Of a DNA stretch of 64,000 nt, positions 1 to 58,733 are shown piece by piece. Every line of letters starts with the position of its first letter. The first letter of the stretch is position 1. The stretch is from Candidatus Uhrbacteria bacterium. GTDB lineage: Bacteria > Patescibacteriota > Patescibacteriia > UBA9934. The notes beneath the pieces are model-generated. The model had not been told where the DNA came from. It was given only the letters and a program-made list of their open reading frames with translations, and did no database searches. The stretch lies in assembly GCA_963822405.1 (NCBI GenBank), contig CAWGHH010000001.1, forward strand, positions 151,296-215,295. Reading direction: 5' to 3'. The translations under genes were made by a program, and so were the position numbers.

Positions 1-25
1 GAGAAAGAAACCATTTGCTTCGCGT

Positions 26-769
26 TTAGTAAGCGAAGCCGTAACCCGCATGCTCGCAACCGAGCTCGCGGGTGGCCACGTGCCAGAGCGTGGTCATGGC
101 GCTACAATGGCCATCGCTGAAGCGCGACGACTCCTCGTAGACGAAGATTTTCTTCAGGGCAGCGGAGTAGCTGCCGAAGAACTTCGCCTCGCTAGGTTCA
201 CCCGTGGCGATAATCGCCAGGATGTCTTCGGCGGCTTGGTCGGGGTTAAACCCGGTGACCAGACGCTCGCGGCCGCCGTCCGTGGCCACCTTCCAGGCAA
301 GCGCGGTTCGGAGATCTGGAGCCGCCTCGTGGTGGAAACCGCCGTCGGAATCGACGAACCCGATGGCCCGTCCCTCGGTGGCGATTTCGATCGAGAACCC
401 GACCTTCTCCGGGTCGAGACCGATCTCCCGCGCGATGCCGCGATAGCGCAGCGCGCACAGCTGCGCGAGCGGGGTCGGGGACGTGGTCCCCAGGATTGCG
501 GTACCGTTGCGATCACGCAACGTGCCGACCACCATCGGGTCGGCCAGCCCGAACTGGGTCAGATTCGCCCGGATCGGGTGCGCGGTCAGGGCATCCGCCT
601 CCCAGTAGAGGCGCGACGACTCTTCCGCGAGGGCCTTGTACTCGGGGTCGTTTTGGGCCTCGGCCAGCCCAATTTTTTTCTCCTTGGAGATCCGGTCGCG
701 AGCCGTGTAGGCCCGGTCGGAGGCGGTCTTGTACGCCGCGTGCGCGACGAGATATGTATCAATGGACAT
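26..769 (-). CDS. hypothetical protein (247 aa) in GC-rich island
   Basis: Long ORF; ATG at 769 preceded by AAAGGAGAG RBS; no recognisable motif; GC visibly higher than the rest of the window. Confidence 0.5.
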   Translation of the reverse strand: MSIDTYLVAHAAYKTASDRAYTARDRISKEKKIGLAEAQNDPEYKALAEESSRLYWEADALTAHPIRANLTQFGLADPMVVGTLRDRNGTAILGTTSPTPLAQLCALRYRGIAREIGLDPEKVGFSIEIATEGRAIGFVDSDGGFHHEAAPDLRTALAWKVATDGGRERLVTGFNPDQAAEDILAIIATGEPSEAKFFGSYSAALKKIFVYEESSRFSDGHCSAMTTLWHVATRELGCEHAGYGFAY

Positions 770-823
770 TTTCTCTCCTTTCCCGCAATTGTAACCGGCG
801 GGTTCGGGTGATTTTACAGCAGC

Positions 824-878
824 ATCCTCAACGAACGTCTTAAAAAGAATGTAAGTTTTTAAGCAGTTGGTTGAGGAT
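824..878. promoter_or_regulatory. 9-bp inverted repeat (ATCCTCAAC / GTTGAGGAT) around a 37-nt spacer, upstream of the 26..769 gene
   Basis: Perfect IR seen directly at 824-832 and 870-878; sits in the promoter region of a minus-strand gene. Confidence 0.3.
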
Positions 879-929
879 CCCGGCCAGACAATGGTGCATT
901 GTCAGCCGAGATCTTGGGTGCGGTTCCTG

Positions 930-1040
930 CTACCGTTTGGTCAGCAGGAACCAGACAATCTGGGCGTAGGCGAGTGCGATCAAGCACCCGCTTCCGCCGA
1001 AACAGCAGAGGACAAAGATGTCCCCGACCTGGTGGGCCAT
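930..1040 (-). CDS. 36-aa hydrophobic peptide (MAHQVGDIFVLCCFGGSGCLIALAYAQIVWFLLTKR)
   Basis: ATG at 1040 with GGAGG 6 nt upstream; single TM-like hydrophobic stretch; the longer 930..1220 ORF is probably an over-extension. Confidence 0.3.
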   Translation of the reverse strand: MAHQVGDIFVLCCFGGSGCLIALAYAQIVWFLLTKR

Positions 1041-1129
1041 AGCGGCCTCCGTGGTTGTTGTCGAGTGAACGCTCGACGCGTGTTTTGGACTCCGTCGGTT
1101 AATTCCAGACGGCATCCAGCCCGATTTTT

Positions 1130-1495
1130 TTAGCTCTCCAGGGCGGAGAGGAAGAGCGGGAGGAATTCCTCCCACCCTTTTGGGGCGTTCGCCCGCGGTT
1201 CCCGCAGGCACTTGGCCCATGTCTCCGCCGGCGCGGGCCAGTACGGCGCGCGCCCATCACCCAGCACCTGCCGCAACCGGCGGGCGACTTCCTCGTGGAA
1301 GCGCGCCTCTCCGGCCATGTAGACGCCGTGATCCCAGCCGAATTCCGGGCTCGCGGACCAGGAAAAGGCCTCGCCTACGCGAGCGGTTTGCGCCGCCTGC
1401 TGGTGCCGGGTGGCGGCCTCGGCGACCGTCATGAGGCCGTGGTTAACCACGGCCCTCGCCACTGCGGCGGCGATTTCTTTTTCAGTGCGGGCCAT
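1130..1495 (-). CDS. hypothetical protein (121 aa)
   Basis: ATG at 1495 preceded by GGAGG (ttGGAGGccatcATG); the ORF extends to a TTG at 1507. Confidence 0.5.
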   Translation of the reverse strand: MARTEKEIAAAVARAVVNHGLMTVAEAATRHQQAAQTARVGEAFSWSASPEFGWDHGVYMAGEARFHEEVARRLRQVLGDGRAPYWPAPAETWAKCLREPRANAPKGWEEFLPLFLSALES

Positions 1496-1541
1496 GATGG
1501 CCTCCAATCAAGGAACTCGATCGCGCATGAGCTGCGCAGTG

Positions 1542-1594
1542 ATCGGTCCTCATCTGATCACTCAAGGGAGAGAGTCCTTAAGTGATCGGATGAG
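1542..1594. promoter_or_regulatory. Conserved long hairpin in 5' leader, copy A (conserved stem arms, variable apex)
   Basis: Left arm ATCGGTCCTCATCTGATCACTC pairs with AGTGATCGGATGAG (14 bp, one G.U); apex forms an AAGG/CCTT mini-stem; copy B at 2652-2703. Confidence 0.45.
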
Positions 1595-1673
1595 AATCCC
1601 TGAAGTGGTCGAGTGTCGACGAGACTTCAGGGATTTAGAGTGACGTAGTTGCGGAGCGTTAGCCCCACACCCG

Positions 1674-1964
1674 TCACCCACGTTGGTACCAACCCCCGTT
1701 GTTGGTTCGGTGTCCCTCCTTATGGATGGACATGATTTCCTTCCGGAGCTCTTTTCGAGCCACTCCTGGGGTCATGCCTGCTGGCGGAGCGAGTACGAAA
1801 AATTCGTACACCGCTCCGCGGTGGCAGTCCCCGCAGTATCCGTCATCCCAACAGCAGCACATTGTGCCGCCGTGGTTCAGACGGCGCGTTTCCGCGCCTG
1901 TCTGGACGAACCCCTGCGCGAGCAACCGCGCGAGGATAAGGTGGGATCGGGTTTTAATGGACAT
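1674..1964 (-). CDS. Cys-rich small protein (96 aa; CCCWDDGYCGDCH cluster)
   Basis: ATG at 1964 with AGGAGG RBS; dense Cys/His cluster suggests metal binding. Confidence 0.5.
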   Translation of the reverse strand: MSIKTRSHLILARLLAQGFVQTGAETRRLNHGGTMCCCWDDGYCGDCHRGAVYEFFVLAPPAGMTPGVARKELRKEIMSIHKEGHRTNNGGWYQRG

Positions 1965-2150
1965 TTTTCCTCCTTAAGAGGTTGATCGGTATGTCATACC
2001 GAAGCGTATTGATACGATCTCAACGCTCTCAAAATCCACAACCTCCATCATGAATTTTGAGAACGCGCCCTGGTACCGCTGTGTGCGTGGGTACCAGAGC
2101 GAGCGAAATTTTTTGGCAGACTATTCCTGGTCTGCCGGCAGGTACCGCCT

Positions 2151-2378
2151 TTACCAGGCGGTGTTGTTGAAGAAGGACTCCATGTCCTCCTTCGACGCTG
2201 CCCCCATGGGGCAGTCGTGGCTGTCGAGCGCTTCTTTGCGCTCGGCTAAGAGGGACATTCCGTCCCTCTGGAGATTCACCACGGCATACGTGCCGTGGAA
2301 CCCGCGCCACCCACCCGTGAGGGCGAGGAGGACGGGGACGAGCTGGGCGCTCATTCCCCCGTTCGCCACCAGGATCAT
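2151..2378 (-). CDS. hypothetical small protein (75 aa)
   Basis: ATG at 2378, 10 nt downstream of the preceding gene stop (operon-like); contains a CPMG motif. Confidence 0.4.
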   Translation of the reverse strand: MILVANGGMSAQLVPVLLALTGGWRGFHGTYAVVNLQRDGMSLLAERKEALDSHDCPMGAASKEDMESFFNNTAW

Positions 2379-2388
2379 ATGATCCTGG

Positions 2389-2577
2389 TCAGTGGTCTCG
2401 GCCCGGAGGCGCCTTGACCGCCTCGGAGACGGTGGCCGTGGCCACCCCCTCCGGCGGGGCGATGCGGTCGTCGTCCATGACGACGACCGTCGGGGTTGTT
2501 TTTGGGAATTCACGGAGGGCATCCGCGAGGATGCCCTCCACGTTCCGACCATTGAACACCAACAGCTTGGTCGACAT
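2389..2577 (-). CDS. hypothetical small protein (62 aa)
   Basis: ATG at 2577 with GGAGG 5 nt upstream; the listed ORF start at 2643 is a GTG inside the leader hairpin. Confidence 0.4.
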   Translation of the reverse strand: MSTKLLVFNGRNVEGILADALREFPKTTPTVVVMDDDRIAPPEGVATATVSEAVKAPPGRDH

Positions 2578-2651
2578 GGCGACCTCCAATTGAGTGACTC
2601 GATTTTTCCTCATGACTTCCGGCAAACATTTGCCAGCGGTCACGGAATAAC

Positions 2652-2703
2652 ATCGGTCCTCATCTGATCACTCGAACGGAGGATGTTCGAGTAGTCGGAT
2701 GAG
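2652..2703. promoter_or_regulatory. Conserved long hairpin in 5' leader, copy B
   Basis: Same 22-nt left arm as copy A; right arm GAGTAGTCGGATGAGG; apex forms a CGAAC/GTTCG mini-stem. Confidence 0.45.
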
Positions 2704-2806
2704 GAGAGGGGACCAGGCGAAGTGTTCGCTATGTCCCCTCACACGTCACTTTTCTTTTTAGGCTTGCCGGTAGGTTGTGCCAAAGGAAAAGAAAGTGAGA
2801 AAGAAC

Positions 2807-3052
2807 CTAATTGGGACTACCAGTCCCCGCACTCATTGGCGGGGACTTCGAGCCAGCGAGCGTATAGCCCGCCGAGGTTTCCTTTCGTCCCTTCTCGCCG
2901 GTATCCGGCGACGGCCACGTACCAGCGGCCGTCCTGCTGGACGACCGCCCCTGCCTCGGGGCTCTGAGCCAACCGGGCTCAGGGCCATGCCCCGAGGGTC
3001 CGTTTTCGGATCCTTCCTGGGCGGCAAGTTTCATGATTTCGGTTTTTTCCAT
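2807..3052 (-). CDS. Gly/Ser/Pro-rich small ORF (81 aa) behind the shared 67-nt leader; frame uncertain
   Basis: ATG at 3052 immediately after the AGGAGGAAAAA RBS that ends the conserved leader; low-complexity product. Confidence 0.3.
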   Translation of the reverse strand: MEKTEIMKLAAQEGSENGPSGHGPEPGWLRAPRQGRSSSRTAAGTWPSPDTGEKGRKETSAGYTLAGSKSPPMSAGTGSPN

Positions 3053-3055
3053 TTT

Positions 3056-3122
3056 TTCCTCCTTGCACTTTTAGATGCAGGTAATCGGCCCCCGTGTGAT
3101 GGGGTATGGTGTGCCGACCGTC
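3056..3122. promoter_or_regulatory. 67-nt conserved 5' leader element, copy 1 (about 5 mismatches against copy 2)
   Basis: ttcctccttgcacttttagatgcaggtaatcggcccccgtgtgatggggtatggtgtgccgaccgtc; carries the RBS and a CCTTGCA...TGCAGG stem adjacent to it. Confidence 0.5.
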
Positions 3123-3336
3123 TCTGATGAGACGGGTTTAACAAATTCGGAGCAAAGTTGCCTCCGACATAAACTCTCCATCATGAAGAATTTGTGTCGA
3201 AGGACGAGGAAGAGCGGTGCATGTGCTCAATTCCTCGCCTACGGGTGCTAATCATGTCCTTGTTGGACTTCACCGCGCAGATGGGGCACGTGTCAGTTTC
3301 TATAGGAGCTGTAGCCCCAGAAACTGACAAAGAAGG

Positions 3337-3561
3337 CTATTCCTGCGTATTGCCGCAGGAAGGGCAGACGCCGACCTTGTCGGCGTTGCCGAAGGCGCCC
3401 AGATGGGCGCCGCAACTCCAGCACGAAACGTCGTGCTGGATGGTCAAAGGGGGGGCGACTATCACCCCCCCACACTCTGGGCACAAGAGAGCCCCTGAGC
3501 CGTGCCTTATCGGCACGACTCCTGCATTGTGCGTGCAGACCGGGCACTGGATGTGATCCAT
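3337..3561 (-). CDS. double zinc-ribbon small protein (74 aa; four CxxC pairs)
   Basis: ATG at 3561 with AGGAGG RBS inside leader copy 2; CPVC, CPEC, CWSC and CPSC motifs. Confidence 0.5.
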   Translation of the reverse strand: MDHIQCPVCTHNAGVVPIRHGSGALLCPECGGVIVAPPLTIQHDVSCWSCGAHLGAFGNADKVGVCPSCGNTQE

Positions 3562-3563
3562 TG

Positions 3564-3630
3564 TTCCTCCTTGCACTTTTAGGTGCAGGTAATCGGCTCC
3601 CGTATGATGGGGTATGGTTTGCCGACCGTC
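3564..3630. promoter_or_regulatory. 67-nt conserved 5' leader element, copy 2
   Basis: Near-identical to 3056-3122; sits immediately upstream of the zinc-ribbon ORF. Confidence 0.5.
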
Positions 3631-4107
3631 CCGGAAGGGGCGGATTTAGGAAATGGTCGAGCGCATCGGTCACACCGACAGCGTAGTGTCCGCGTCGATG
3701 TCGTTGATTAGGACCTCCGTGTCCTGATCCACTACCAGGCCGAGCCTGATGGCGAGTGCAACCTGTTGACAGGTCGCCAACGTCACGAGCCGGGTGCAGC
3801 CGGCGTGGTGATCGAACGAGAATCGACGCCCGGAGGCATCGACCTGGGGCCCTGCACGGCCCCATCGAGCGCGATCGAGTTCACACAGAGGTTCTCGAAG
3901 GAGACGACCTGGCCGAACACGAAGTTGATACGCATGGTGTCCTCACTCCCGGTTTCCGCCGGGTCGGGATTGTCACGGCTTATAACCAGCTTCGAACTTC
4001 CAGGTGTTGACGATCTCTCGTCAGGGGCTGCGGCAGGTCGAGAAACTCGACTAAACCGACTAACGCCTGAACACCTTTCCGTCCAAACTGGCTACTCGCC
4101 AATCAGC

Positions 4108-32447: not shown

Positions 32448-32490
32448 AGTATAGCAAAAAAACGCCCTTTTGTCAATGTTTTGGGGCTAA
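32448..32490 (-). promoter_or_regulatory. Near-consensus promoter of cassette 2 (TTGACA-N17-TGCTATACT plus conserved upstream TTAGCCCCAAAACA)
   Basis: Minus strand reads TTAGCCCCAAAACATTGACAAAAGGGCGTTTTTTTGCTATACT. Confidence 0.6.
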
Positions 32491-35610: not shown

Positions 35611-36561
35611 ATGACTGCTTCTCAAGATTGGAATAGTAAAGTCAGAGCCCATCTCCCGCCTTTTGGCGGATTTTTGCAGTCGTATGAGTGGGGGGAGTTT
35701 CAGGAGTCGATCGGCTTCAAGGTAAAGCGGATTTTTGAGCAAACAAAAAAAGGCGTAGTCATTGCCCAGGCAGTCGAGCAGCCCTTAAAATTCGGCAAAA
35801 AGTATTATTTGATCCCAAAAGGTCCGCTTGGTGATGCATCGCCAAAGACCATGGTCGACATACTTAAAAATGAACTCGGCGACGGGGCATTCTTGAAGAT
35901 CGAGCCAGTGAAGAAGTTGAACGGGTCAACGCTTGTTCATGAGCGACACCCATTTACGACCGCGATTATTCCGCTCGGTGGTTCGGCAGAGAAAATTCTC
36001 GACCGGATGAAACAGAAGACTCGTTACAACATCAAACTTGCGGAAAAGAAGGGCGTGACTATCCGGATTGCTCGGGAGGAGGCGTTCGACGAGTTCATGG
36101 AGATCATGAAAGATACGGCTAAGCGTGACGGCTTTCATCTGCACCAGCCAGATAGATATTTGAACATGCTAAAGGTTTTGAAGGGCGGGGAGTGTAAGGC
36201 CTATCTTGCGTTTGCAGATTTTGAGGGCAAAGCCCTGGCCGTAAACTTAATGATTGATAGTTTTGGCCAGCGAACATATTTGCACGGCGCGTCCTCCAGC
36301 GAAAATCGCAACATCATGGCACCGTATGCTTTGCATTGGTTCCTGATCAAGGATGCGATCGAAAAGGGTATGTCGATGTACGACTTCTGGGGTATTGCTC
36401 CTGTTGGTGCCGGCGACGAACATCCTTGGGCGGGAATTACTCGTTTCAAACTCGGCTTCGGGGCTGAGATTGTCGAAATGCCAGGCACGTTCGACGTGCC
36501 TGTTTCAAAACTTTGGTACGGCTTTTATAAATTCGCGAGAAAAATAAGCGGTTTGAAATAA
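35611..36561 (+). CDS. FemAB-family peptidoglycan interpeptide-bridge aminoacyltransferase
   Basis: FemAB/MurM family similarity over the full length. Confidence 0.7.
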   Translation: MTASQDWNSKVRAHLPPFGGFLQSYEWGEFQESIGFKVKRIFEQTKKGVVIAQAVEQPLKFGKKYYLIPKGPLGDASPKTMVDILKNELGDGAFLKIEPVKKLNGSTLVHERHPFTTAIIPLGGSAEKILDRMKQKTRYNIKLAEKKGVTIRIAREEAFDEFMEIMKDTAKRDGFHLHQPDRYLNMLKVLKGGECKAYLAFADFEGKALAVNLMIDSFGQRTYLHGASSSENRNIMAPYALHWFLIKDAIEKGMSMYDFWGIAPVGAGDEHPWAGITRFKLGFGAEIVEMPGTFDVPVSKLWYGFYKFARKISGLK

Positions 36562-36980
36562 AAAAAACACCCCGCTGTTGAGATGTTCGCCGGTATAAGG
36601 CGTCTTTCTCTAACTTGCGGGGTGGACACGGTTACGGTCGGTCGCGAATTCGATTGGTCATCGAGGACTCCTTATAGGGTGAAGTCGACAGATGCGCGCG
36701 TTGGCCAACATGCCGGACGCCGCGGGTGGTGCATGGCACCGTGGGGGAGCCTATTAGGCGCGTCGCGAATGCAGTTCGTCATCGTGAACTCCGGTGGAAA
36801 GGATGTGGCACATCCGCGGGAGTATTCCCACGAATGCACCGGCTGGTGTCGCCGTCGTCGAGCCGATCAGACGTTGAAACGATTGGTGGAAGAGTCGGAA
36901 CTTCGCATCTAACCTCCTTTTTTTTCGTTCTGAGCGTTTCGGCTTCGAGGTCTTCGAGTGCCGGACGCTATCAATTGACG
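36561..36980 (-). ncRNA. Orphan GC-rich transcription unit (about 420 nt): strong promoter, intrinsic terminator, no ORF >=60 aa; candidate ncRNA and/or tandem small ORFs
   Basis: Promoter TTGACA-N17-TGCTATACT at 36987-37015; terminator CACCCCGC...GCGGGGTG (36568-36624) with a U8 run; sORFs of 13, 36 and 9 aa with good RBS; direct repeats 36641-36667 and 36762-36787. Confidence 0.35.
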
Positions 36981-36986
36981 AGAATT

Positions 36987-37015
36987 AGTATAGCAAAAAA
37001 TCTGACTTCTGTCAA
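36987..37015 (-). promoter_or_regulatory. Near-consensus promoter for the orphan transcript
   Basis: Minus strand reads TTGACAGAAGTCAGATTTTTTGCTATACT. Confidence 0.55.
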
Positions 37016-37109
37016 GTGCGAATAGCTGAAACAAAGCGAATATTAGCTAAAAAAGAAGCACCCCCCGGACTACGGTCCGAGGGGCGTTTTGTTCCGCATG
37101 CGAGCGGGG

Positions 37110-37343
37110 CTAGGGGATCTTTTTGCAGGACTTCTTCCAGGCTGATAGCACCTTTTCCTGCACCTCAATCTCAGTTGTTTGTTCAGTGACCATCTGCCGT
37201 AGTCCGTTGATTGTCTGTTGTTGTGAATAACAGACCGTCCCAATAAAACAGGTGGAGAGAACAAATAATCCGAGCACGAGTATATTGAGATGTGAACCGT
37301 GATGCTCAGGAGGAGGCTCTACGTACGTATTGTTGTCAGTCAT
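37110..37343 (-). CDS. small membrane protein (77 aa)
   Basis: ATG at 37343 with GGAGATAAA RBS; hydrophobic helix; bidirectional hairpin terminator at 37060-37100. Confidence 0.4.
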   Translation of the reverse strand: MTDNNTYVEPPPEHHGSHLNILVLGLFVLSTCFIGTVCYSQQQTINGLRQMVTEQTTEIEVQEKVLSAWKKSCKKIP

Positions 37344-38698: not shown

Positions 38699-40003
38699 GT
38701 GATTAACCAGGACGGAAAGAAAATAATCAGAATAACAAAAGGAGGCTATTCTAAAGCTTCGCCTTTTATTGTTCGTCTTTCCCGTCCCGGCGAGCCAGTA
38801 GCTCAGATTGTTGACCCGCTTGCCGATCTTCGCGAGAGCTTGGTGATCGATGGTGACGATGAAGGTGATGAGGCGCCGTTAGTTGAGGCCTATGATGGGG
38901 GAGTAGCCATTGCTATTTCTTTTGACGAATTCCGCGACCAGTTAATGGAAGACGTGGAGGCAGTTGAGAAAATAGACAATCGTCCGCCCATAGTCATTGG
39001 TCCAATTGTCCGTATTATCTCGACATCGAACATCAGACAACAGACATCGAACATCCCCTCAGATCCAATCACAACAGAGGATATAGAGGTCGCTGAAGTC
39101 TTTGCGTCAGATGCTCCGCTGGCTGATTTTACGGCGCGTATTGCTCAGGTCTTTTCTTCAAAACGTGCCGTTGCGTCATTTATTTTACTCGCTCTTCTTG
39201 TTTCAGCTCCGCTACACGCCGCGCAGGTTTTTGCCAATGTAAAATCAACTACTGATTCCGTGAAGGCAAATGGTTCTACGGCACTTAGCTCATTTTTACG
39301 TGGGGCTACTAGTTTGTCTGGAAAAGATTTTGATTCTGCGGGTAAAGATTTTTCTAAAGCAGCTGAAGATTTTGCAAATGCTGAGGATTCATTGAATAGC
39401 ATGCACGCCGTAGTGACCGCGGCTGCCAGCATGATTCCGCAGACTGAGCGGACTATGAGTTCGGTTCGCCATCTAGCCGTTGCCGGGGAAGAGTTGGCGA
39501 ATACCGCCGAGATCCTTGCGCTGGCTGGTCAGGATATTGCCGGCAAGAAGTCTTTAACGGTAGTAGATAAGATTGATTTGCTTTCAACTTATGTTGGCAG
39601 TGCTGGCCCTCACGTGGATGCGGCCGCTGAAGCCATGCAGAAGATTGACGAGAATTCATTACCAGCTGAATACGCAAGCAAGATTCATGAACTAAAGACG
39701 GCGGTTCCGGCTCTCGCTAGTACGCTCAAGGAGTTCACTGAATTTACTCACGCTTTGACCATTATTCTAGGCGGTGAGGGCGAGGTTAAATATCTAGCAG
39801 CTTTCCAAAATAATACAGAGATCCGCGCTACTGGTGGCTTCGTAGGCAGTTTTGCCGAATTGAATGTTAAGAATGGCGCCATTGAGAGTCTTTCTGTCCC
39901 TGGCGGAGGTTCATACTCTTCTCAAGGTCAGTTGACTGAGTATGTGGCAGCTTCCAGGCCCTGTTCAGTTGTTGCGTTCACGTTGGGAGTTCCAGGACGC
40001 TAA
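38699..40003 (+). CDS. DUF4012-domain protein, N-terminal part (frameshifted relative to the next ORF)
   Basis: ATGGFVGSFAEL DUF4012 motif; the frame ends where the 39942 ORF takes over in another frame. Confidence 0.6.
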   Translation: MINQDGKKIIRITKGGYSKASPFIVRLSRPGEPVAQIVDPLADLRESLVIDGDDEGDEAPLVEAYDGGVAIAISFDEFRDQLMEDVEAVEKIDNRPPIVIGPIVRIISTSNIRQQTSNIPSDPITTEDIEVAEVFASDAPLADFTARIAQVFSSKRAVASFILLALLVSAPLHAAQVFANVKSTTDSVKANGSTALSSFLRGATSLSGKDFDSAGKDFSKAAEDFANAEDSLNSMHAVVTAAASMIPQTERTMSSVRHLAVAGEELANTAEILALAGQDIAGKKSLTVVDKIDLLSTYVGSAGPHVDAAAEAMQKIDENSLPAEYASKIHELKTAVPALASTLKEFTEFTHALTIILGGEGEVKYLAAFQNNTEIRATGGFVGSFAELNVKNGAIESLSVPGGGSYSSQGQLTEYVAASRPCSVVAFTLGVPGR

Positions 40004-46663: not shown

Positions 46664-47178
46664 CTGCTTGGAGAACTAGTAAGCCGAATTCTGTCGAGCC
46701 TCTACGTGCTTTCGGACGTAAAGATTCGTGACGATCATCTCTCTAGTTCTGACATTGCTGTCAGACTCATGCGAGCTACCTAATTTGCTCTTGCACCACG
46801 ATGGGTTTGCCGCACCCGTGCGTTACCGCGCGGGTGAGAGGAGTGGGCTCCTCACTTTTCACTGTACTTCACCATAGCTTGCGCCGCAGGTGAGTATCAT
46901 AGTCTCTGTTGCGTCTTTCTTGTGGTTTCCCACAAGTCTTGACCTTTGAGATTCTTGCGTTTCCCAAAGACTTTCCCTGGGCTTCCTGAGGCCTGTGGGG
47001 GACAGCGCGAAGCCGCCATCCAGTCCCTCACCGGCATCACTTTTTCCCGGTTGCTGTTAGCAACACCGTTTCTCATTCATGCATTGCTACATGAAGGGTG
47101 TTCGGACTTTCCTCCCCCTAACGTAGCTCCGAGCGTTAGCAAGGGGCGAAGTGGGGGCGATCATCTTGTTTTCCAAGC
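46664..47178 (-). ncRNA. rnpB: RNase P RNA, bacterial type
   Basis: P4 5' strand GGAGGAAAGUCCGAAC (rc of 47101-47123); P4 3' strand GACAGAAUUCGGCUUA (rc of 46679-46696), pairing with the bulged U; P1 GCUUGGA/UCCAAGC; GGUAACGC and GGGUGCGG blocks; terminator 46638-46663. Confidence 0.7.
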
Positions 47179-47184
47179 GAGGCA

Positions 47185-47213
47185 AGTATAGCAAAAATAG
47201 GCGAATATGTAAA
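47185..47213 (-). promoter_or_regulatory. rnpB promoter, TTTACA-N17-TGCTATACT
   Basis: Minus strand reads TTTACATATTCGCCTATTTTTGCTATACT; predicted start coincides with the P1 5' end. Confidence 0.55.
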
Positions 47214-47293
47214 GAAAAAGAAAGCTCCGCGTCATCTTACCCAGAGGGGGAAAATGCCGCGGAGCGGAAGGGGGGGACGGGGCTCTCTGCCCT

Positions 47294-47726
47294 CTAATCC
47301 CGCACGATCGGGCGCGAGAAAGAGGACGGGATGCTCCGCACGTTGTGTAACGGATTGGTCGACGGCTTGGGGGTCGGATCGTCGTCGATCTTGATGTTGC
47401 AGAGCTTGTCATCGAGGTCGTGAACGAACTTCGGCACCGCCATGGCGTACTGCTTCATGTTGTCGATCTCGGGTTTGTCAGTGCCCTCGATACGATCGAG
47501 GATGCTGCGGTACGTCGCGACGTTGTGGGGCTTGCCGTCGCAGTACGCACGGACGATGCCTTTGTGCATGACCGCGATCGACTTCCGCTCCCAATTGCCG
47601 GTGTCATCGAGCCGTTCGATGGTGTCCTCGATGTCCGCGAGCAGATGGTAGAATTCGGAGTCGCCGGTTGACGGTGGTGCAATGTCTGATTTGGCGGGAG
47701 TAGCCGTGATGATCTTTTTGGTCACG
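47294..47726 (-). CDS. hypothetical protein (GC-rich island), GTG start
   Basis: GGAAGG RBS before the GTG at 47726. Confidence 0.4.
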
Positions 47727-47981
47727 GGACCTTCCTGTGGTGGGGTTCTAACCGTTGTTGGGAACAAATTCCTTCCGGGGAGGAAGAAACGCTCGTAAAC
47801 GGTATACAAAAAATGGCTAACCGTCAACGTCCAGATAGGGTCACAGGACTGACTGCGGTTACGGGTAAGGGCGGGGCTTGCCCTGCGCCTATATATGAAA
47901 GCACCCGCCCGCCTGATGAGGAGTCAGGCGGACGGGCACAGAGTACGTCGTACGCGGACGACGTGTCATGGACAAGCGGTA

Positions 47982-48520
47982 CTAGGCCGTGATGAGCGTG
48001 CTGAGCGTCTCGGTGATGGCTTCAGCGGACGTCAGGCGATAGAGCACGGCGACGTTCTTCTCGGAGCGGATCTGGCGTGCCAGCGCCTCGATCTGCTCGA
48101 TCTTGCTGTACAGATCCTTCAGCTTCATGGTGAACGGCGCACAGTGCCGAACAAAGCCGGTGGTCAGCGTAAGAATGCGCGGGATCATCTCCCGCCGGGC
48201 ATCATCAGACATCTTCTGATCAAGGAAGCTGAGGCAATCATTGATCTTGATCTTCTCGCCTTCCTTGCGCCGTTCGCGCATCTGGGCAACGATCAGCATG
48301 TCCGTTTCGAGCTCAGCGCTGGTCGCGAGCCCATGGAACTGCCGATCCTTCTGCGCCTGAATGCGCATGTTCAGGAGCGCCAGGGTGACCTTTTCCTCGA
48401 CCGTCTTGGCGAACGAGGCATCGGCCGCGATTTCCGCGGTCAACTCGTTTTGCGCTTGCCGTTTGGGGTGGCGCGCAGGCGGACGGGGAACGGAGTCAGT
48501 GGTGTCGTCATCGGACGACA
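47982..48520 (-). CDS. hypothetical alpha-helical protein (GC-rich island)
   Basis: ATG at 48520; imperfect hairpin at 47911-47945 downstream of the stop. Confidence 0.4.
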
Positions 48521-48710
48521 TAGCGGGGTGATCCAAGGCAGTACTCCGGTGGGAATCCCTTCCGTGGGACGGTTGGGAATTGTTGGTTGCGCTCAGAAAG
48601 AGCCCCCAAATACTATAACTCGCACCGGCTAATGTCAATAATTTGGCTAATAATAGAAAAACGCCCGACCCCCGAAGGAGACGAGCGTAGAGCCAAGCCC
48701 ATTTAGCGAA

Positions 48711-48977
48711 TCAGTCCTTCTTGAGGACGTACTTCGCTCGTGGTTCCTGGGCGAGCAGCATTACGCCACTCATGAGCAGAAGCCCCGTAATTAGGGCAAG
48801 TCGCCCTGGCGTTTCCACCTGCATTCCCGTGCCGGTCATATTCCAGCTGACGAGAAACGAGTAGATCGCTCCCGAAGTGACCGAGAAGACCAATCCGGAG
48901 ACGATCATGATCACGAGCCAGCTCATGGCCGACCGCACGATTAGCTGCCAGTCTTTCTGGTTCACGAAGACCTCCAA
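48711..48977 (-). CDS. small membrane protein (88 aa)
   Basis: Two hydrophobic helices. Confidence 0.4.
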   Translation of the reverse strand: MEVFVNQKDWQLIVRSAMSWLVIMIVSGLVFSVTSGAIYSFLVSWNMTGTGMQVETPGRLALITGLLLMSGVMLLAQEPRAKYVLKKD

Positions 48978-48980
48978 GGT

Positions 48981-49157
48981 TTAGATGTCGAGTTTTACTC
49001 GGATAGCTTCGCAGGTCGGAACAATCGGCATTGCGAGTGCAAGACAGATCGTCTGACCGTCAATCTCGACGCCCCACAAGGAGTGGAGTCCGAAGAGACC
49101 GAGGAGACCGGAGATACCGGCCAATGCGAGTACACCGAGAATCTGGAAAATGGACAT
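48981..49157 (-). CDS. small membrane protein (58 aa)
   Basis: ATG at 49157 with GAGGG RBS. Confidence 0.35.
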   Translation of the reverse strand: MSIFQILGVLALAGISGLLGLFGLHSLWGVEIDGQTICLALAMPIVPTCEAIRVKLDI

Positions 49158-49303
49158 TTTTCCCTCAAGAAGAGGTTTGATTTGGAAGGGCAGGCGTAAT
49201 GCCTGCAGGGCAGAAAGAGGACTGTATCTCACGTAGGCACAATAACAATAATAGCACTTTTTGACCCTTTTGTCAAGGGAAAAAGTGCTATTTGTGGCTA
49301 GAG

Positions 49304-58656: not shown

Positions 58657-58733
58657 GGATCCGTAGCTCAGTTGGTTAGAGCGCCGAGCTTATACCTCGG
58701 TGGTCCCTGGTTCAAGTCCAGGCGGATCCACCA
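58657..58733 (+). tRNA. tRNA-Ile (anticodon TAT), CCA encoded
   Basis: Canonical cloverleaf: GGATCCG acceptor, D-stem GCTC/GAGC, anticodon stem CCGAG/CTCGG, loop CTTATAC with U33 and A37, T-arm CCTGG-TTCAAGT-CCAGG. Confidence 0.85.

Follow-up and report, generated by a model that had tools for sequence, protein, structure and literature searches.

The 64,000-nucleotide (nt) stretch of Candidatus Uhrbacteria DNA analysed here (the window; positions 151,296 to 215,295 of contig CAWGHH010000001.1) carries on its minus strand a unit of ~420 nt, running from ~36980 to 36560, that is bracketed by a near-consensus promoter and a strong terminator hairpin with a U8 tract. Within this unit lie two tandem mini open reading frames (mini-ORFs), each led by a Shine-Dalgarno (SD) sequence and each opening on an MTN-IRD peptide. 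We conclude that these mini-ORFs are apparently under selection on both their peptide and their translation signals, because the SD and start codon are kept, Arg, Asp and Pro are written with synonymous codons, third positions vary, insertions and deletions are in frame, a palindrome in the nucleotide sequence has been lost from some copies, and the motif is specific to units of this kind. A preliminary description had offered a structured non-coding RNA or a tandem small-ORF locus. The comparative data favour the small-ORF half, in that the MTN-IRD frames appear to recur as peptides with translation signals and not as a nucleotide motif; the structured half was not wrong, and some hairpins are conserved.

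We provisionally regard the unit as an arrest- or leader-peptide-like element without leader function. Our leading reading, held tentatively and at a little less than an even chance, is that its functional core consists of the two SD-led mini-ORFs, ancestrally of 9-10 codons with the form M-x(1-3)-[C/R]-I-R-D-x-P and with the stop directly after this in mini-ORF 2, and that the whole is a free-standing RNA with a regulatory or sensing role, read by ribosomes that pause on it, and does not serve as the leader of a gene downstream. After initiating on the mini-ORFs, ribosomes would pause or be arrested at R-D-x-P or Pro-stop, much as happens with SecM/ApdP 'RAPP-like' modules or Pro-stop stalls, and ribosome occupancy would be the purpose of the RNA. 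Such a stall might act on how the RNA folds, on how stable it is, or on termination, with read-through running antisense to FemAB; it might also tie up tRNA or ribosomes. Transcription of the unit and translation of the mini-ORFs are what we infer from the DNA itself, and stalling by the peptide is what the analogy with these systems suggests.

Conservation of the mini-ORFs and of RNA structure

Units occupy the same place, between the FemAB and GT4 genes, in three sister species (L082, L083 and L088). L082, in which FemAB is 89% identical, gave an nhmmer match to the unit at E = 7.6e-51, and homologous units accompany FemAB genes of 79% (L083) and 81% (L088) identity. Compared with L082, the window is identical throughout the promoter (30 of 30 nt; the same architecture is found in the L083 and L088 units) and 94% identical in the 5′ leader, and the other transcribed segments range from 41 to 88%: 88% in hairpin B, 83% in the mini-ORF 2 segment, 67% in an upstream 13-codon frame (ORF1), 42% in the terminator and 41% in the tail of mini-ORF 1. 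Leader and ORF1 are not conserved over all four species; in L088 the leader is 38 nt long and runs directly into the first mini-ORF. A second form of the unit, type B, lies in other variable slots of L002, L083 and L085 (Table 1). Its promoter is near-identical, its 5′ hairpin has a species-specific stem sequence, and its first ORF, of 34-36 amino acids (aa), has a conserved (R/K)SDH motif; in L085 this 35-aa ORF is called as a gene. The last type B ORF, M-V/C-R-x-R-D/G-P-P/T, ends MCRIRDPTPNLP.., MVRNRDPPFNPATPAYP-stop or MVRNRGPPFNANPA-stop, and its final codons overlap the terminator's 5′ arm.

The 14 mini-ORF copies were collected by a scan in which an SD motif had to begin 7-16 nt ahead of the start codon; every one of them starts with ATG or GTG and retains GGAG or GAGG in front of it, despite divergent flanks. 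Arg is present in every copy and is followed by Asp in 13 and by Gly in one, at a position where arrest peptides prefer Ala or Gly and where Asp, Ser or Pro is partly permissive. Pro stands two residues past the Asp or Gly in 10 of the 14, including both window copies, so that the R-x-x-P spacing is preserved in these. In its general form the core reads R-[D/G]-x-P and lies at the stop codon or beside it. The relatives' copies include RDGP (three), RDPP and RGPP, and the family also holds RD[RQ]P-stop (four); frames beginning MVRNRDPP.. and MVRNRGPP.. belong to the set common to the units.

The invariant Arg is encoded by five codons (CGC, CGA, CGG, CGT and AGA), among them a CGG/AGA pair in orthologous L088 and L083 frames, while Asp is encoded by GAC and GAT and Pro by CCT, CCC and CCG. 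Minority bases fall at 13 of 38 third positions and at 2 of 76 first and second positions (Fisher p ~8e-6, a value that is indicative only, as the copies are related). When the copies are set out in rows of codons, their length differences are of 3 or 6 nt and in frame. A regular expression for the motif matched only in these units across 808 kb of related loci and the window. Within the window's unit, two SD-led ORFs have R[DG].P in their first 12 residues, against a mean of 0.002 in 1000 dinucleotide-preserving shuffles, and the long ORFs of the window (12.9 k codons) contain RD.P once and R[AG]PP never.

Both window frames start inside a direct repeat, which had been described as 26 nt long; it is real and coincides with both frames, at a length of 31 nt and an identity of 81% (36641-36671 and 36762-36792), and its degenerate form is unique to these sites in the window. 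Mini-ORF 2 and its L082 counterpart, which starts with GTG, share a stretch of 24 identical nt, AATCGAATTCGCGACCGACCGTAA. The frame of mini-ORF 1 continues in the window to 36672, giving 36 aa, and its TAA (frame 36782-36672) sits within the UAAGGAG of mini-ORF 2. This arrangement of 36- and 9-aa ORFs had been recognised correctly, with the 36-aa frame taken as the unit; the conserved unit is instead a mini-ORF of 9-10 codons, as in MTNCIRDSA-stop of L001, a near-identical Logan contig (99.95%), and MNCIRDGPE-stop of L082. The extension overlaps hairpin B, and because it is absent from L001 and L082 it is probably not the selected product. Between window 36759-36761 and L001 2609-2611, a 1-nt insertion or deletion together with a substitution turns MTNCIRDAPNRLP.. 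(36 aa) into MTNCIRDSA-stop (9 aa), a C-terminal difference that reflects either strain microheterogeneity or a difference between assemblies.

One alternative explanation for the recurrent motif is that the unit is a purely non-coding RNA, in which the 31-nt repeat would be a protein-binding site or a pair of mutually pairing UCGCGA boxes and the ORFs would be incidental. RNAalifold indeed predicts pairing between CGCGA in copy 1 and UCGCG in copy 2, and the sense strand folds better than its shuffles (z = -3.8, compared with -1.55 for the antisense strand). The 94% identity of the leader to that of L082 also exceeds what coding-type constraint would give. Some predicted RNA structure is conserved or re-created, namely the terminator hairpin, the hairpin before mini-ORF 1 and the hairpin at 36726-36694. 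The terminator, built of an outer stem CACCCCGC/GCGGGGUG around an inner hairpin followed by U8, has a folding energy of -28.5 kcal/mol (z = -4.9 against shuffles), and the long terminator hairpin is homologous in L083 and L088, where both sides of 4 pairs have changed. At the position equivalent to hairpin A, L082 has a hairpin of differing sequence (-20.3 kcal/mol) in which 3 pairs are changed on both sides, and every difference from L082 in hairpin B falls in the loop. No evidence for a large ribozyme-like fold was found in the unit. Against the non-coding explanation, the palindrome UCGCGA is lost in copies L088_1 (CGCACTCGGGAC) and L083_0 (CCCAGAGATGGT) and in type B copies (CGTAACCGTGAC), all of which keep R-D-x-P; the third-position variation, the in-frame length changes, the retention of SD and start in every copy and the lack of any Rfam family likewise oppose it, and we consider it unlikely.

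A 10-nt motif, GCGUCCGGCA, occurs in the leader and again in hairpin B. The SD region of mini-ORF 1 (CCGGAG; CUGGAGG in L082) is complementary to its UCCGG core, which makes the motif a candidate anti-SD sequence.

Weighing ribosome pausing against other explanations

Several points weigh against ribosome pausing as the function of the unit. No gene lies downstream of it on the same strand, and to our knowledge every characterised arrest peptide has such a gene; all characterised bacterial arrest peptides that we know of are cis-acting leaders, nearly all of them longer than 20 residues and with a targeting signal, and the nascent chain here would be only 8-9 residues long. No SD-sequestering or antiterminator structure was found to be conserved between the window and L082, and an 11-nt complementarity between the second SD (SD2) and the interior of the terminator, a candidate antiterminator, is absent from L082 and was therefore set aside. 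The third motif position is Ala (RDAP) and Arg (RDRP) in the window and Ser in L001, and all three fall outside the rules established by mutagenesis of ApdA and ApdP, which allow nothing but Pro here, or also Gly in ApdP (PMC12992588); Pro or Gly occurs there in relatives only (RDGP, RDPP and RGPP). In L001, moreover, mini-ORF 1 stops after 9 codons and lacks the Pro. The sample comprises seven units and 14 mini-ORF copies from one narrow clade, and the resemblance of copies to each other within a genome suggests gene conversion, which inflates the statistics. Finally, the case for translation is drawn from initiation signals and the pattern of substitution.

A rival with as little probability in our estimate as the non-coding one is that the unit is a small polycistronic messenger RNA for micro-peptides of 8-10 residues (MTNRIRDRP and its relatives) that act in trans without stalling. 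Coding-type conservation, SD and start signals, a strong promoter and the lack of a downstream cis target would all suit such genes, and peTrpL is a reported precedent for a leader peptide with a trans function (PMC7298713). The peptides are extremely short, charged and without an export signal, however, and only the 3-4-residue core R-D-x-P is conserved, whereas the surrounding residues vary freely. Even near-identical strains do not agree in ORF length and C-terminus, and the conserved residues are those that are important at the peptidyl-transferase centre in arrest peptides.

We regard as distinctly unlikely a ribosome-dependent attenuator that senses the supply of charged Arg- or Pro-tRNA, or EF-P activity, and in which the speed of translation sets whether the terminator forms, with read-through passing antisense into FemAB or, in some relatives, into a downstream gene. 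Its attraction lies in the geometry, as the last mini-ORF of the window ends 7 nt ahead of the terminator stem and the type B ORF enters the 5′ arm of the terminator, and in the richness of the mini-ORFs in Arg and Pro codons. Also in its favour, FemAB-family enzymes use aminoacyl-tRNA. Short ORFs with Pro codons also occur in leader RNAs as mgtL and mgtP (PMC6460261). Yet the mini-ORFs of L083 and L088 lie ~300 nt from the terminator, no antiterminator is conserved between the window and L082, a single invariant Arg stands in place of a regulatory run of codons, and the downstream context is inconsistent between units.

Less credible again is a physiological minigene, in which strongly expressed short ORFs would titrate tRNAs or ribosomes through peptidyl-tRNA drop-off and so serve as a growth brake or conflict element. 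Frequent drop-off of short nascent chains and sequestration of tRNA by minigenes of 3-8 codons are both reported (PMC2490762, PMC10192219), and ORFs of 8-10 codons with strong SDs and a strong promoter in a hypervariable accessory slot fit the pattern. Generic toxicity has no need of specific R-D-x-P conservation, no evidence of toxicity was found, and the unit has no phage or plasmid relatives.

That the unit is the functionless remnant of a decayed protein gene, or an artefact of assembly or annotation, seems to us barely credible. The idea draws on the ordinary genes that L002, L085 and L086 have in the same slot, on the frame-changing variant between window and L001 inside the unit, and on a probable frameshift in a neighbouring gene; against it, promoter, mini-ORFs and terminator are retained in three species whose FemAB is only 79-89% identical, and neither the antisense nor the sense ORFs have real homologues. 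Two facts show that the unit is no pseudogene: the proteins that relatives have in the slot are related neither to it nor to each other, and in three other relatives a homologous unit stands in exactly this position. The preliminary description had held that a normal gene here in relatives would speak for decay; superficially that is what L002, L085 and L086 offer, and the unrelatedness of the proteins removes its force. In tblastn searches with the 270-, 163-, 563- and 101-aa slot proteins, the best match to the unit had E = 0.17.

No known RNA or protein family matches the unit, as the preliminary description had said of RNA families. Rfam gave nothing for the window's unit at gathering score and only two chance matches of 15-18 bits at E<=10; the L083 unit had no match at either level, five related unit-bearing loci had none at gathering score, and ARAGORN found no tmRNA in the unit. 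The statement that no ORF of at least 60 aa is present holds for the sense strand, on which the longest is 55 aa, and fails for the antisense strand, with ORFs of 109 aa (36583-36912) and 99 aa (36726-37025). In L001 a gene caller made of the latter strand a 147-aa Arg-rich ORF, the sole gene called across the unit. As an antisense protein gene it was rejected, since it matches nothing but itself among 5.8 billion protein clusters, and the 55-aa sense ORF, compared with 1.84 billion representatives, gave a weak match, summed over a protein of 23 repeats, and a single further match at E = 4e-4, both of which were rejected as artefacts.

Units were found only where FemAB is at least 76% identical. 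None was present in L095 (FemAB 64% identical) or in ~80 more distant FemAB loci of Patescibacteria and Chloroflexota. There was no blastn match to the unit among phages and plasmids, and two pattern scans of viral contigs gave no matches. A promoter-pattern scan of metagenomes returned 0 matches in a collection that is incomplete, as the JGI contig of L082 carries the exact pattern. A degenerate N-R-I-R-D-R-P-stop pattern returned 6 matches from metagenomes, all within genes and without SD or start codon, and these were dismissed as chance. Within the window, complementarity of possible trans targets to the unit was limited to chance-level 10-13-mers. Our searches of the literature turned up no description of orphan tandem mini-ORF RNAs of this kind.

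If stalling by the mini-ORFs is real, arrest-peptide biology would extend to the Candidate Phyla Radiation (CPR), a stand-alone RNA gene could have stalling as its output, and the units would offer a very small natural test case for the minimum that an Arg-x-x-Pro motif requires. It is conceivable, and in our view doubtful, that they form a new class of RNA gene, free-standing 'ribosome-trap' RNAs with 2-3 tandem R-D/G-x-P mini-ORFs of 8-10 codons and no cis-regulated gene, by which Patescibacteria would sense or modulate their translation state (arrest-relief factors, tRNA supply or ribosome availability); an arrest module of ~8 residues would then be sufficient in these ribosomes. Even without stalling, standard annotation miscalls such units, as the spurious 147-aa antisense ORF of L001 illustrates.

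Features of the unit and its surroundings

The features are collected in Table 1. Transcription would start near 36980. Most elements of the preliminary description were borne out here, including the promoter, the clean terminator, the 13-codon ORF with its perfect AAGGAGG and a GC content of ~60%, for which we measured 0.60-0.615 over the unit core (36600-36899). The genome is not AT-rich, as had been stated; it has ~48% GC with several islands of 57-65% (1-4000, 30000-30800 and 47200-49200). The ORF1 counterpart in L082 has 13 codons with the same SD, start and stop positions, and its peptide, MRSHNSSPENCAL-stop, differs at 8 of 13 aligned residues. The convergent FemAB-family gene (35611-36561, plus strand) has its stop codon 0-6 nt from the end of the terminator.

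Table 1. Elements of the unit, the mini-ORFs of related units and the content of the slot in relatives (window positions unless a relative is named; ORFs end in a stop codon where so marked)
Feature	Position	Strand	Description
Sigma-70-type promoter	36987..37015	-	TTGACA-17 nt-TATACT, spacer with T-tract, TG-extended; 11/12 consensus matches
5′ leader, ~70 nt	36913..36986	-	Predicted stem-loop AGCGU.CCGG...CCGG..ACGCU; A8 tract ending in SD AAGGAGG 36919-36913
10-nt motif GCGUCCGGCA, copy 1	36968-36959	-	In leader; kept in L082
10-nt motif GCGUCCGGCA, copy 2	36720-36711	-	In hairpin B; kept in L082
ORF1, 13 codons	36867..36908	-	MRSSDSSTNRFNV-stop; ATG 36908; perfect SD AAGGAGG 36919-36913
Hairpin A	36807..36840	-	15-bp stem; -24.2 kcal/mol; just upstream of mini-ORF 1 SD
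Mini-ORF 1 core	36756..36792	-	MTNCIRDAP; SD GGAG 36792-36789; ATG 36782
Hairpin B	36694..36726	-	Between the two mini-ORFs; stem conserved, loop variable
Mini-ORF 2	36632..36673	-	MTNRIRDRP-stop; SD AAGGAG 36673-36668; ATG 36661; TAA 36634-36632
Intrinsic terminator	36560..36624	-	Stem 36624-36568; U8 36567-36560
L082 mini-ORFs			MNCIRDGPE-stop (mini-ORF 1 orthologue); (GTG)NRIRDRP-stop
L083 mini-ORFs			(GTG)ANNPRDGP-stop (mini-ORF 1 orthologue); MIRARDRP-stop; MIRARDQP-stop
L088 mini-ORFs			(GTG)ANRTRDGPE-stop (mini-ORF 1 orthologue); (GTG)ANRIRDQT..; MLFRKARDD..TP-stop
Type B unit, L002	1140-1444	-	In another variable slot
Type B unit, L083	5690-6039	-	In another variable slot
Type B unit, L085	6650-6970	-	In another variable slot
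Slot content, L002		-	270-aa gene; FemAB 86% identical
Slot content, L085		-	163-aa gene
Slot content, L086		-	563-aa Big_5 protein
Slot content, L095		-	101-aa gene

The neighbours of the unit are RuvA, FemAB, GT4 glycosyltransferases and DUF4012, and from their homologues the window is assigned to Patescibacteria (CPR). Between FemAB and GT4 lies a hypervariable slot of which the unit is one cargo, and the slot genes of L002, L085, L086 and L095 have no relationship with one another or with the unit. In L083 (10970-11250) and L088 (1625-1875), on the minus strand, an extra 3′ segment of ~300 nt is present that the window unit lacks. This segment matches nothing in Rfam and contains two hairpins that are conserved: CAGACYCGGGUAAAACCGRGACCAA, in which there is a compensatory change, and CCUCC..GAGG. 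Directly upstream of the window's unit lies a small predicted membrane protein (37113-37343, minus strand; 77 aa from an internal Met) with its own terminator at 37086-37059. It has 51% identity in L083, a weaker match in L088 and none in L082, and belongs to no Pfam family.

The promoter belongs to a family of strong and nearly identical promoters (TTGACA, T-rich spacer, TGCTATAMT) with matches at 31119-31147, 32448-32476, 36987-37015 and 47185-47213, all on the minus strand (4 matches against 0.06 expected), which precede GC-rich accessory genes, RNase P RNA and the mini-ORF unit. As a marker of the unit family it was rejected, the same architecture driving unrelated genes and RNase P RNA in this genome. 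The class A bacterial RNase P RNA lies at 46664-47031 on the minus strand, possibly extending to ~47170; at 83.9 bits (E = 7e-26) it is below the Rfam gathering score of 100 and hence was missed by the default scan and found by a permissive one. A GGAGGAAAGUCCG box stands upstream of the reported match, and the promoter at 47185-47213 is of the same type as that of the unit.

The DUF4012 gene (38699-40003, plus strand) has an extra T at 39952 relative to L001 and encodes 434 aa, whereas the protein has 801-837 aa in L001 and in all relatives. In the window's assembly this truncation is probably an erroneous frameshift or else a recent pseudogenisation. Two genes for tRNA-Ile carry the anticodon UAU (31338-31411 and 58657-58733, plus strand; ARAGORN and Rfam), which suggests that AUA is read by a tRNA with UAU in place of a CAU tRNA modified with lysidine. 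The minus-strand island at 30048-31139 encodes a very acidic protein of 363 aa, in a slot downstream of IleRS where L002 has a type B unit.

Comparison with known systems

Like ribosome-dependent attenuators, the unit has a short ORF and a terminator, but no alternative pairing was found to be conserved between the window and L082, and no same-strand gene lies downstream. The phage lambda bar minigenes are very short SD-led ORFs whose effect, as would be the case here, comes from translation and not from the product. They are of 2-3 codons and lack peptide conservation, whereas the ORFs described here have a conserved core and are chromosomal in a CPR bacterium. Dual-function small RNAs (SgrS/SgrT, RNAIII/hld and SR1/SR1P) similarly join structured RNA and a small ORF in an independent small transcript; unlike the present unit, they encode proteins of 26-43 aa and have a known base-pairing seed, whereas here no target complementarity is seen in the window.

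The leaders mgtL (mgtA) and mgtM/mgtP (mgtCBR), together with rnTrpL/peTrpL, resemble the unit in being structured RNAs of 0.3-0.4 kb with SD-led, Pro/Arg-rich short ORFs near an intrinsic terminator. Those RNAs are 5′ leaders of operons, in contrast to a unit that has its own promoter and terminator, nothing downstream and no alternative-structure switch that could be seen to be conserved. In rnTrpL there is nevertheless a precedent for such an RNA and its peptide acting in trans.

Pro-stop peptides that stall at termination (TnaC-like, xxP-stop; PMC10987492) have a counterpart in mini-ORF 2, which ends ..RDRP-UAA (CCG TAA). Pro-stop also occurs in copies L082_2, L083_0, L083_1 and L083_2, while two copies end P-E-stop and mini-ORF 1 of the window is without it. 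The known Pro-stop peptides have at least 24 residues and control a downstream gene via Rho or exposure of an SD, and here no ligand or downstream gene is evident.

The arrest peptides SecM, ApdP (..KCIRAPP), ApdA and ApcA (RAPG) and the 'RQH' family differ in that the mini-ORFs have 8-10 codons and no signal peptide or transmembrane segment, which makes force-dependent release impossible, and in that 2-3 tandem copies stand on an orphan transcript with no same-strand gene downstream. The known RAPP peptides need an adjacent N-terminal region, though a short one is enough in ApdP, whose critical residues are QSKCI and then RAPP (PMC10951233). In the SecM/ApdP-type systems, where the SecM motif ends GIRAGP, Arg is irreplaceable, a change of Ala to Gly enhances arrest and one of Ala to Asp is partly permissive, giving intermediate arrest at the second position of ApdA and ApdP; no motif is stronger than RGPP, and proteomes contain RDPP less often than expected (PMC12992588). 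RDGP, found here in relatives, has been used as a RAPP-like query motif (PMC10987492). The likeness to these peptides lies in an Arg three residues before the Pro, in the Ile, often after Cys, that precedes the Arg, and in the place of the motif at the very C-terminus of the mini-ORFs.

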